Positions 6,335 to 10,245 of a DNA stretch of 12,800 nucleotides are shown here, in pieces. The translations under genes were made by a program, and so were the position numbers. The stretch is from a virus, in UHGV virus genome UHGV-0088363; one strand, given 5' to 3'. Numbering within the stretch: position 1 is the first letter of the stretch; every line of letters begins with the position of its first letter. The notes under the pieces are model-generated. The model was not told the origin of the DNA and did no database searches. It saw nothing but the letters and a program-made list of their open reading frames with translations.

Positions 6335-7771
6335 TCAGAATCCTCCTTTCTTCTTGGACTGCGGTTCCTCGCGTTCACGGCGGCGCATTTCAGCAGACTG
6401 TTGGTCTGTGTCATAAATAGCGCCATTTGCCTGAATGCAATACACCGTGCCGGTATTGCCATGACGATTGAGACGAAGGATTAGTTCGGTTTCACCAGGT
6501 GGAACACTGTCATCAAAAGCACCTTCACGATGGATCCCCACCCAATAATCGCAATCCTGTTCAATCTGCCCTGTATCGCGCGAGTCACTTGGTAATGGGC
6601 GTTTATTGGTTCGGCTTTCCAATGCGCGGTTAAGCTGTGTCAGAAGCACAACAACGCAATCAAGCTCTTTGGCAAGGTTCTTCAATCCTTTGGTGATCAT
6701 GCCGTAAGCAAGGTCGTTGCGATCGGCCTTCTCAGCAGTCATTAGTGTCAGGTAATCGACCAGAATCATGCCAACACATCCTTTTTCTCGCTTGATTCGA
6801 CGGCTTTCGCTGACGATTTGAGCCAGAGATAATCCCGGCGTGTCGTCGATGTAAAGCAGGTCGATTTCACTCAAGCGATTGGCTGTTTCGATCGCCCTGT
6901 TGAAGTCACCATCGTAATCACCCTGATAGCCGTCATCAGCGTCATTTGTCGCCGGAAGGTAAAAAATATTCGGGTTAACACCAGACTTCTGCCCTACCAG
7001 TTTTTCCAGTATCTGATCACCTGGCATTTCAAGGCTGAACATCAGAGCGGGCTTTTTCTCATGCACTGCGCAGTTGATTGCCATCTGGCTGTATAGCGTC
7101 GTTTTCCCCATCTTAGGGCGAGCGCCAATGACAAACAGAGAGCCTTTCACCAGACCTTTCGGTGACAGCATCCTGTCCAGCGATGGGATCCCTGTGCTCA
7201 TTCCTCGTTGTTCGCCTGACGGGTCAAATCGCTTCTCAAGGTCGCTAACCCAGTCTTCCATGACCTCACCAAATGAGCGAAGGCCGCGACGCGATCCGGT
7301 TTTTGCATGGTCTGTCAGTTGCGTGAAAATCGCCTGAATAGCTTCGTACTTCTGCGTTGCAGTCATTCCGTTGCGGGAATAGAGCAATTCCGTCGCTTCA
7401 GTTATGCGGTTGATGGCGTAGCGTTCCATTGCGGTTTCACGAACCTGCATTGCATAGGCAACGATGTTTGCGGCGCTTGGCGTGTTCTTTGCGATCTCAG
7501 CGATATAAGCAAAACCGCCAACAGACGACGTTAACGATTTACGCTCCAGTTCATCGAAAAGCGTCAGGCCATCTACTGGATTTTGCTCCCGGTGCATTCT
7601 GGTTATTTCTTCGAAAAGGATTTTGTGTGGTCGGCTGTAAAATGAATCAGGCTTCAGCATCGCCAGAACTTTCTGGACGCGCTCACTGCTGTCATCATCC
7701 AGAAGCAATCCACCAATCACCGCCTGCTCTGCCTCGATGCTATGGGGCGGCGCATAAAAATTATCGGTCAT
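6335..7771 (-). CDS. Replicative DNA helicase, DnaB family
   Basis: N-terminus [26 protein letters not shown] (DnaB N-domain signature), Walker A GARPKMGKTT, and a downstream ILVDYLTLM-type motif. Start set at the ATG with RBS GAGGGTG rather than the upstream GTG of the track. Confidence 0.85.
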   Translation of the reverse strand: MTDNFYAPPHSIEAEQAVIGGLLLDDDSSERVQKVLAMLKPDSFYSRPHKILFEEITRMHREQNPVDGLTLFDELERKSLTSSVGGFAYIAEIAKNTPSAANIVAYAMQVRETAMERYAINRITEATELLYSRNGMTATQKYEAIQAIFTQLTDHAKTGSRRGLRSFGEVMEDWVSDLEKRFDPSGEQRGMSTGIPSLDRMLSPKGLVKGSLFVIGARPKMGKTTLYSQMAINCAVHEKKPALMFSLEMPGDQILEKLVGQKSGVNPNIFYLPATNDADDGYQGDYDGDFNRAIETANRLSEIDLLYIDDTPGLSLAQIVSESRRIKREKGCVGMILVDYLTLMTAEKADRNDLAYGMITKGLKNLAKELDCVVVLLTQLNRALESRTNKRPLPSDSRDTGQIEQDCDYWVGIHREGAFDDSVPPGETELILRLNRHGNTGTVYCIQANGAIYDTDQQSAEMRRREREEPQSKKKGGF

Positions 7772-8660
7772 CGTGTTCACCCTCACGAACTTTCAGGTAG
7801 GTATTATCGTTAAGCAGGAAATCAAATCCCTTTTTGTGCCAGACGGTTCCGCGTTGATGGTTTGGGCGTTCTTCGAACATCCATCGGCAATTTTCGCCTA
7901 CGTAGCTCAAATAATTTCTCCAGTCCTGCATCGTGAACCCATGCCCGTCAAGCTGGCGGGTTATCACTCCGGCTTTGCGCCAGAACGTTCGGATCTGGTT
8001 TTTACGCTTGTCATTCAGTGCGCGGATTCTTGGCGCTTCAGGAAGGATTTCGTGGTAAGCATCGACAACATCCTGACAGCTGACGGAAGGTTTTTTCTTG
8101 TCAGACTTTTTGTCTGCTGTGGCACTCTCTAATACGTCAGTATTAGAGATAATATTATTATATTCTTTATCTGTGGTAATTTGCTGGTAATCTGCTGGCA
8201 TAGTATTGCTTACAGGCATTGGTATTGCTGGCTTTGAGGTGGTAATTTGCTGGTAATCTGCTGGTACAGAATTTGACTGATAATCGTCATATTTCTCTAC
8301 CGAGAAAACTGAAAATTTACCGTGTGAAACCCAGTCAATCATGCCGAGTTTTTTGAACTTTCTAAGCAGGTACTGAACGCGATCTGGTTTGAGTCCTGTT
8401 TCAAACGCCAGAGAGTTTCTACCGCCAAGTAGCTTCCCTCTGCCTACCAGAATTTCTCCTGCGTCAGTCATTACATACTCAGGCGTATGCTTTGCTTTGA
8501 GGATTAAGTGAACCCACAGATGCGCTGCTTCTGCGTCCTTGTAAAACGGCACATCCATAATTTTACGGTGCAGCAAGGCATACCCCTTACCGCTGCTTTG
8601 ATGCGGTTGTTGTAGCCTTCTGGCCTCTCTGGCTTCGGCTAGATTAGATATGTTACTCAT
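7761..8660 (-). CDS. Replication initiation protein (O-like, iteron-containing), non-lambda allele
   Basis: 299-aa ORF directly upstream of and overlapping the helicase gene; contains the origin-like iterons, which encode a repeated PADYQQITT segment; RBS AAGGAGAAAGG. Not the lambda O sequence. Confidence 0.7.
8129..8264. repeat. Putative replication origin: iterons plus adjacent AT-rich tract inside the O-like gene
   Basis: Exact 26-bp direct repeat GTGGTAATTTGCTGGTAATCTGCTGG at 8173..8198 and 8239..8264, each made of two approx 12-bp GGTAAT(T/C)TGCTG units, with degenerate units between; AT-rich stretch at 8129..8170. Confidence 0.55.
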
Positions 8661-8799
8661 GACCTTTCTCCTTCTGCATCAGCTTCACTTTTTCCAACTC
8701 AGCCCGGAATCGACCAGGCTGCTTGAAGCTGGACAGGAAGCGATCACGTAGTATGTGTTTGTGAATTTTGTCCTGGTAAGGACTGAGTTGTTTTGTCAT
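8653..8799 (-). CDS. Small ORF (48 aa) between cII and the O-like gene; possible recombination-junction ORF
   Basis: Not in the six-frame track (under 60 aa). ATG preceded by ACAGGAGTCATT, which matches the lambda O ribosome-binding region as recalled; stop lies 5 nt past the O-like start. Confidence 0.35.
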
Positions 8800-8833
8800 A
8801 ATGACTCCTGTGGATTGATCCAGTCTTTCTACA

Positions 8834-9112
8834 TCAGGCCTCGAAGAATTCGCCGTTCTTCGGGGCTTTTTCTTTTGTCAGCATTCTGGCTACTTGCTTA
8901 GCCAGTTCCGCCAACTCCTCGTCTTCAACACCCCATTCCAGCACAGCCAGAAGCATGGCCATCTTTGGGATAAAGCTGTCTTTCCATCGCGAAATTTGCG
9001 ATTCATTAATCCCTAACGCGTCGGCAACCTTTCGCTGACCACGTACAGCAATTCGATTCAGGATGTTGCTTGTAATTGCATTCGCTTTCTTGCGAGTACT
9101 TGTAAGTTGCAT
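8834..9112 (-). CDS. cII: CII-family transcriptional activator (divergent allele)
   Basis: 92-aa product from the ATG with RBS AAGGAAAT; core SQISRWK...[15 protein letters not shown] matches the lambda CII core, N- and C-termini differ. The track's upstream extension lacks an RBS. Confidence 0.8.
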
Positions 9113-9191
9113 ATGTAAGTATTTCCTTAGATAACAATTGATTGAATGTATGCAAATAAATGCATACACCATAGGTGTGGTTTAATTTGAT

Positions 9192-9223
9192 GCCCTTTTT
9201 CAGGGCTGGAATGTGTAAGAGCG
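9192..9223 (-). promoter_or_regulatory. nutR (boxA CGCTCTTA and boxB GCCCTGAAAAAGGGC)
   Basis: Minus strand reads CGCTCTTACACATTCCAGCCCTGAAAAAGGGC, matching lambda nutR as recalled. Confidence 0.85.
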
Positions 9224-9230
9224 GGGTTAT

Positions 9231-10245
<1,015 letters not shown>

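Follow-up and report, generated by a model that had tools for sequence, protein, structure and literature searches.

A putative replication origin with 11-bp iterons, an AT-rich tract and a palindrome inside the O-like initiator gene of an HK022/HK620-type lambdoid prophage module

The replication origin of phage lambda is located in the linker part of its initiator gene and consists of iterons (39034-39118), an AT-rich tract and a palindrome with a 4-nt centre. The four lambda iterons are 18 bp long, each with an internal dyad. Lambda O is a two-domain initiator with a swappable C-terminal domain, and this domain works with the P loader and the host DnaB. Iteron origins of theta-replicating plasmids (Rep, pi, TrfA) are likewise built of direct repeats for their own initiator, placed beside an AT-rich unwinding element. 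Plasmid iterons are typically ~17-22 bp in length and are accompanied by DnaA boxes. In the general lambda scheme, O binds to the iterons, and unwinding depends crucially on the AT-rich tract (PMC7466680). In phage P22, the origin is situated inside the initiator gene 18, which contains four repeats of ~20 bp and is followed by a phage gene for a DnaB-type helicase (gene 12); the gene 18 protein of P22 is only ~25% identical to gp18 of phage L (PMC8022706). For phage L, the likely origin was reported to be a set of six imprecise 11-bp repeats located in gene 18 (PMC8022706).

Several sequence records already mark the element examined in this study. The stretch of DNA analysed, hereafter the window, comprises 12,800 nt of the viral genome UHGV-0088363. 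A two-part rep_origin feature in the record of phage HK620 (AF335538) maps to positions 8173-8268 of the window. The VT2-Sakai record (AP000422) contains the misc_binding features 'ori iteron 1/2', described as bound by O protein, which correspond to positions 8239-8268 and 8173-8202. At the equivalent place, the record of Sf6 shows a repeat region likened to the lambda origin and to phage HK620, while that of phage L shows a putative ori. These database annotations rest on analogy with lambda. No ori-plasmid assay, footprint, binding assay or origin mapping for the HK022-type origin was found in the searchable literature. The putative origin is thus an ordinary one, known by annotation from HK620, VT2-Sakai, Sf6 and phage L, and the scientific weight of describing it once more is small. 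The refinements made here are minor: a palindrome with compensated changes, frozen synonymous sites, variants with one to four blocks of repeats, and a strict pairing between the C-terminal domain of the initiator and the helicase gene.

The locus is the early-right operon of a lambdoid prophage, with cII-like, cro-like and cI-like genes located upstream of the O-like gene (Table 1). The product of the latter gene was assigned to PHROG 345, 'replication initiation O-like', with E=2e-87. Over 900 bp, the gene is 98.8-99.0% identical at the nucleotide level to the O genes of mEp235, HK620, HK630, VT2-Sakai and many Stx phages (megablast). HK022, mEp235 and HK630 have the same O gene as the window, and the N-terminal domain of HK022 O is identical to that encoded here (tblastn). 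The best 120 protein homologues listed were 86-100% identical to the O-like protein, and four contigs in the public collection encode an identical protein (P0028). The last part of O overlaps the beginning of the helicase gene (7761-7786), the true start of which is likely near 7771, still overlapping O. A small upstream gene (~8653-8799, minus strand), equivalent to hkaW of HK620 and orf48 of HK022, overlaps the start of O at 8653-8660. This tight packing of genes around O suggests translational coupling.

Table 1. Coordinates of the putative origin, its host gene and the adjacent helicase gene in the 12,800-nt window
Feature	Position	Strand	Sequence or basis
O-like replication initiator gene, 299 aa	7761..8660	-	ORF, translation, megablast, PHROG 345
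N-terminal domain, aa 1-128, last residues KYDDYQ	8277..8660	-	Alignments
Iteron block 1, three 11-bp direct units	8235..8267	-	Period, conservation in relatives
Block 1, first unit (O sense strand)	8257-8267	-	GTACCAGCAGA
Block 1, second unit (O sense strand)	8246-8256	-	TTACCAGCAAA
Block 1, third unit (O sense strand)	8235-8245	-	TTACCACCTCA
33-bp spacer between blocks	8202..8234	-	Holds blocks 66 bp (6 x 11) apart
Iteron block 2, three 11-bp units, adjoins AT tract	8169..8201	-	
Block 2, first unit (O sense strand)	8191-8201	-	ATGCCAGCAGA
Block 2, second unit (O sense strand)	8180-8190	-	TTACCAGCAAA
Block 2, third unit (O sense strand)	8169-8179	-	TTACCACAGAT
AT-rich tract, candidate DNA-unwinding element	8150..8172		AT tract at same position in all relatives
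Perfect palindrome, 10-bp arms and 4-nt centre	8126..8149		TCTCTAATAC-GTCA-GTATTAGAGA (+ strand)
C-terminal domain of initiator	7761..8125	-	Co-occurrence of C-domain and helicase
DnaB-type replicative helicase gene (HK620 'P' equivalent)	6335..7786	-	Pfam DnaB_C 3e-60, DnaB 6e-31

The O-like protein is a two-domain initiator, as is lambda O, and the repeats are located in the part of the gene that encodes the linker between the domains. The N-terminal domains of both proteins are homologous at the profile level; namely, aa 16-169 of lambda O match phrog_345 with E=5e-17. Searches with the O-like protein gave no significant match in Pfam (best hit PF09681, E=0.12), NCBIfam or, by sequence, the PDB. 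Residues 1-130 were modelled by AlphaFold from the single sequence with low confidence (mean pLDDT 61), and the best Foldseek match of this low-confidence model in the PDB had E=0.28, with mostly winged-helix regulators among the top matches.

Comparative analysis included 10 annotated phage loci and 131 further loci encoding relatives of the N-terminal domain (51 from bacterial genomes and 80 from viral contigs). The type of C-terminal domain was strictly paired with the gene located downstream. In 124 of 124 related loci, the C-terminal domain of the window type occurred together with a gene for a DnaB-type helicase, while that of the lambda O type was accompanied by a gene for a lambda P-like loader in all six loci where it occurred (L006, L032, L034, L035, L044 and L056). 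These six loci share the kind of N-terminal domain and the 11-bp iterons with the window type. Such pairing fits a division of labour in which the N-terminal domain reads the origin and the C-terminal domain recruits the helicase. From the sequence comparison, the N-terminal domain is predicted to bind the iterons, and the C-terminal domain would bring in the helicase, which in the window is encoded by the phage itself, the partners in lambda being the P loader and the host DnaB.

The exact 26-bp direct repeat on which the original prediction was built, GTGGTAATTTGCTGGTAATCTGCTGG on the plus strand, is present at 8173-8198 and 8239-8264, with its starts 66 bp apart. It is the longest exact direct repeat of the window; the longest repeat in 200 first-order Markov simulations had a mean length of 13.1 bp and a maximum of 17 bp. 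Each copy had been described as two units of about 12 bp, but the period revealed by Tandem Repeats Finder was 11 for both copies, and each block holds three units. Self-matching of the repeat region gave the same period, with a value of 0.47 at lag 11 vs 0.19-0.36 at the neighbouring lags and a second peak at lag 66 (0.60). All six units are mutually spaced by multiples of 11 bp. The degenerate units thought to lie between the copies were found in part: the first 11 bp of the 33-bp spacer are unit-like (AAGCCAGCAAT, 8224-8234), and the remainder of the spacer is not. By inspection, the 11-bp units, which are direct repeats, show no evident internal inverted repeat or dyad. Outside the O gene, the 12.8-kb window has no further unit cluster, and matches there with at most two mismatches were scattered singles.

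The annotated origins of HK620 and VT2-Sakai have essentially the same sequence, with the same 26-30-bp repeats at the same positions. They differ from the window in the first unit of the AT-proximal block, which is ATGCCAGCAGA here and GTACCAGCAGA in these phages, so that the exact repeat is 26 bp instead of 30 bp long. The window version deviates by one change from the family consensus GTACCAGCAGA, and this change replaces Val154 by Met. Most relatives examined, including 13 of 13 diverged members of the clade that were compared, have the consensus unit at this place, and HK022 has GTCCCAGCAGA.

The A+T content is 79.5% at 8129-8172 and 91% at 8150-8172, compared to 54.5% in the whole window. 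This confirms the A+T-rich stretch that had been placed just downstream of the repeats in the direction of O transcription, that is, at lower coordinates, as the gene is on the minus strand. The tract at 8150-8172 would act as the DNA-unwinding element. Beyond it, and within the stretch that had earlier been called AT-rich, is a perfect palindrome that was overlooked in the original prediction. The annotations of the phages compared here mark the repeat region alone, without the palindrome. As single-stranded DNA, the palindrome folds with -8.6 kcal/mol (z=-5.4). The lambda origin possesses a palindrome of 28 bp (12+4+12; positions 563-590 of locus L142) at the same relative position.

Among the relatives (L004-L141), the palindrome is found at the same position in 33 distinct versions with at least 14 arm cores, and all 33 versions have a 4-nt centre of the form T[AG]A[CA]. 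In the alignment of these versions, which is biased towards pairing because the best hairpin was picked for each sequence, 97.3% of cells are paired and each of the 10 pairs has changed on both sides. None of 500 shuffles attained the observed percentage paired or the covariation score, and alignment in slid registers gave a pairing of only 29-47%. Of the shuffled segments, 0.45% contained a perfect stem of 8 bp or longer by chance. At the nine inner pairs, 297 of 297 cells are strictly Watson-Crick, with 89 double changes, while the only two G-U cells belong to the outermost pair. The arms reassort freely with respect to iteron type, 8 of the 14 arm cores being found with more than one type. 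As judged from this alignment, the palindrome is maintained through compensatory changes, and its structure rather than its sequence seems to matter.

The same layout was found in ~130 related loci from many enterobacterial genera. In the enterobacterial relatives, which share 39-100% identity in the N-terminal domain, it begins directly after the end of this domain (KYD[DE][YF]Q) and has a conserved order, in which two triplets of 11-bp units flank a 33-bp spacer, and an AT-rich tract and then a perfect palindrome come next. The window shows this layout of the 11-bp-iteron family, with its 3+3 units 66 bp apart after the N-terminal domain and followed by the AT tract and the palindrome. The absence of the repeats from relatives had been named beforehand as evidence that would speak against an origin. 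They are kept in all enterobacterial relatives examined, the only exceptions to the 3+3 layout being copy-number variants (one to four blocks) and incomplete contigs. In distant homologues from metagenome assemblies (L055, L057 and L058), an AT-rich tract comes after 4-5 contiguous 11-bp units. Prevotella sp. oral taxon 376 (L060 and L061) also has a distant homologue of the N-terminal domain, and there about nine contiguous 12-bp units, CAAACAAATGAG, come after the domain; the reading frame of L061 is broken by stop codons.

The 66-bp module consisting of one block and the spacer varies in copy number among otherwise near-identical O genes. Locus L092 carries a single block, and the window and most other loci carry two (299 aa); L062 and the 321-aa proteins have three blocks, and P0001 (343 aa) has four. 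Accordingly, O-like proteins of 277, 299, 321 and 343 aa exist, the copy-number variants including P0001 and P0002-P0027. This variation would be explained by unequal recombination between the 26-30-bp repeats.

The gene 18 of phage L and gene 43 of Sf6 encode homologous initiators, with N-terminal domains 57% and 48% identical, respectively, to that of the window; the C-terminal domain of Sf6 appears, by eye, identical to the window version in the alignment. Both phages also have six 11-bp units in a 3+3 arrangement, 66 bp apart, and then an AT tract and a palindrome. However, their unit is TGTCCAACGGA, as compared to TTACCAGCAnA in the window, which implies a different binding specificity. 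Unit sequences differ between other relatives as well. TTACCAGCAnA is the unit of the window clade, TGTCCAACGG that of L, Sf6 and ENT47670, TGTCCAGCC that of the CobraSix/Enterobacter clade, and GTGCCAACAGA that of the Klebsiella/Erwinia/Pantoea/Yersinia clade; AATCCAAAGGA, TTCCCAGAAGA and others are further types. The N-terminal domains associated with TACCAGC-type units are at least 71% identical to one another and at most 68% identical to those of any other type. Unit sequence tracks the clade of the N-terminal domain, although this association partly reflects simple linkage, the iterons and the domain being adjacent. The distinct initiator specificity proposed earlier fits these data.

Compared to lambda, where iterons of 18-19 bp with a dyad are bound by O dimers, no iterons of this kind are found in the window. 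Its six units are 11-bp direct repeats without an evident dyad, and the mode of binding may therefore differ from that in lambda. The window origin is also unlike the origins of theta-replicating plasmids in the length of its units, in its location inside the initiator coding sequence and in the absence of a DnaA box. The survey for the latter at 8100-8300 (TTWTNCACA, at most one mismatch) was negative, and neither an IHF consensus nor an Rfam family was found in the origin region. The lack of a DnaA box and an IHF consensus leaves no host initiator site as a competing explanation.

We interpret the region 8126-8267 as the vegetative (theta) origin of the HK022/HK620/VT2-Sakai-type lambdoid prophage module, contained in the linker of the initiator gene, and assign to this interpretation a probability of about 85%. 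The lambda-like arrangement inside O that was initially proposed is supported by the position of the repeats in the linker, by an AT tract on the promoter-distal side and by the existing origin annotations. In the protein, the in-frame repeats give rise to a duplicated peptide, and variation in module copy number, as seen here in the series of four protein lengths, is common in linkers; the DNA repeat could thus be a mere trace of a peptide duplicated in a flexible linker, with no function as DNA. The 11-bp sub-period is not explicable in this way. It is not a multiple of three, so that successive units are read in different frames and the three units of a block occupy all three. Moreover, synonymous positions are nearly frozen in the units but freely variable in the N-terminal domain. 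Among 47 distinct sequences of the TACCAGC clade, 9 of 11 third-codon positions are invariant in block 1 and 8 of 11 in block 2, as compared to 11 of 94 in the N-terminal domain and 1 of 11 in the spacer. Mean pairwise nucleotide identity among 14 diverged members is 94% in block 1 and 97% in block 2, but 80% in the N-terminal domain, 60% in the spacer and 57% downstream; only 5 of 33 spacer columns are invariant. Between clades, the peptide encoded by the blocks is wholly different, while the 3+3 geometry with its 66-bp distance is retained. These patterns argue that selection acts on the DNA and not on the peptide. Mere peptide duplication, which we regard as extremely improbable, was rejected on the codon-position evidence. 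Throughout the family, conservation of the DNA covers all three parts, namely the units, the AT tract and the palindrome.

Alternatively, the units might be genuine sites of the O-like protein that serve for control, e.g. autoregulation, handcuffing copy control or exclusion of related phages, with replication starting elsewhere. Control roles, such as handcuffing, are known for plasmid iterons. Cloned iterons of the lambda ori inhibit rep-lambda phages in trans (PMC3349717). We nevertheless consider an exclusively regulatory array very unlikely: conservation extends to the neighbouring AT tract and the palindrome, as would befit an unwinding site, the order of the parts is that of the experimentally defined lambda ori, and the 12.8-kb window lacks a second unit cluster outside the O gene. 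The palindrome and its T/A-rich tail (8126-8149 and 8150-8172, plus strand) might, on the other hand, represent not a part of the origin but the intrinsic terminator of an O-antisense transcript. A consensus scan rated the plus strand as terminator-like (10 pairs, 3 G-C), and the record of phage L contains predicted antisense-strand terminators that overlap the equivalent hairpin region. Yet a promoter scan of 7700-9300 revealed no promoter-like site, the stem is A+T-rich, the tail is a mixture of A and T rather than a T run, and the lambda ori has its palindrome at the same relative position. An RNA hairpin made from one strand would tolerate G-U pairs; the strictly Watson-Crick inner pairs fit a constraint on both DNA strands better. 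With regard to these pairs and the missing promoter, the antisense-terminator reading was judged highly unlikely.

The following sequence of events may be envisaged for an origin at 8126-8267. As suggested by the layout of the repeats and the homology to lambda O, the N-terminal domain of the O-like protein would bind the six units, probably head to tail, since these are direct repeats without an evident dyad. The bound initiator may assemble a wrapped complex resembling the lambda O-some. Such a complex would strain and destabilise the adjacent AT tract, leading to its opening, and the C-terminal domain would then recruit the DnaB-type helicase that the phage itself encodes just downstream. 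The palindrome would be needed for its structure and not its sequence, and a hairpin or cruciform may arise from it where the opened region ends. A more far-reaching proposal is that opening is materially unlike that in lambda: monomers would bind head to tail on the 11-bp units, in two triplets placed six units apart, and the palindrome, relevant by structure only, would be extruded into a hairpin or cruciform, serving the phage DnaB-type helicase as its site of loading or priming without a separate loader. In this proposal, which we consider doubtful, the palindrome might also be sensed by defence systems of the Lamassu/DdmABC type. For Lamassu/DdmABC, enrichment at the lambda ori in the course of replication has been reported, and palindromes are described as its trigger (PMC12663957).

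This replication module is very common in prophages of E. coli and Shigella, including Shiga-toxin phages, and single variants of the O-like protein occur on at least hundreds of contigs. Knowledge of the origin aids annotation, the prediction of replication incompatibility and the interpretation of defence systems that sense origins. Two features offer cheap experimental handles, namely the correspondence of iteron type to the N-terminal domain clade and the compensatorily maintained palindrome.

Two further elements were recorded in the window. A strong terminator-like hairpin is present on the plus strand at 8836-8868; it has 14 pairs, 6 of them G-C, followed by the T run TTTCTTTTGT, and gave no match in Rfam. 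It faces, in antisense orientation, the 3' end of the cII-like gene, which is located at 8834-9172 on the minus strand, and its position is that of the terminator of the oop antisense RNA in lambdoid phages. In addition, adjacent genes for tRNA-Thr (tgt; 657-732) and tRNA-Asn (gtt; 738-812) were identified on the minus strand by ARAGORN and Rfam.
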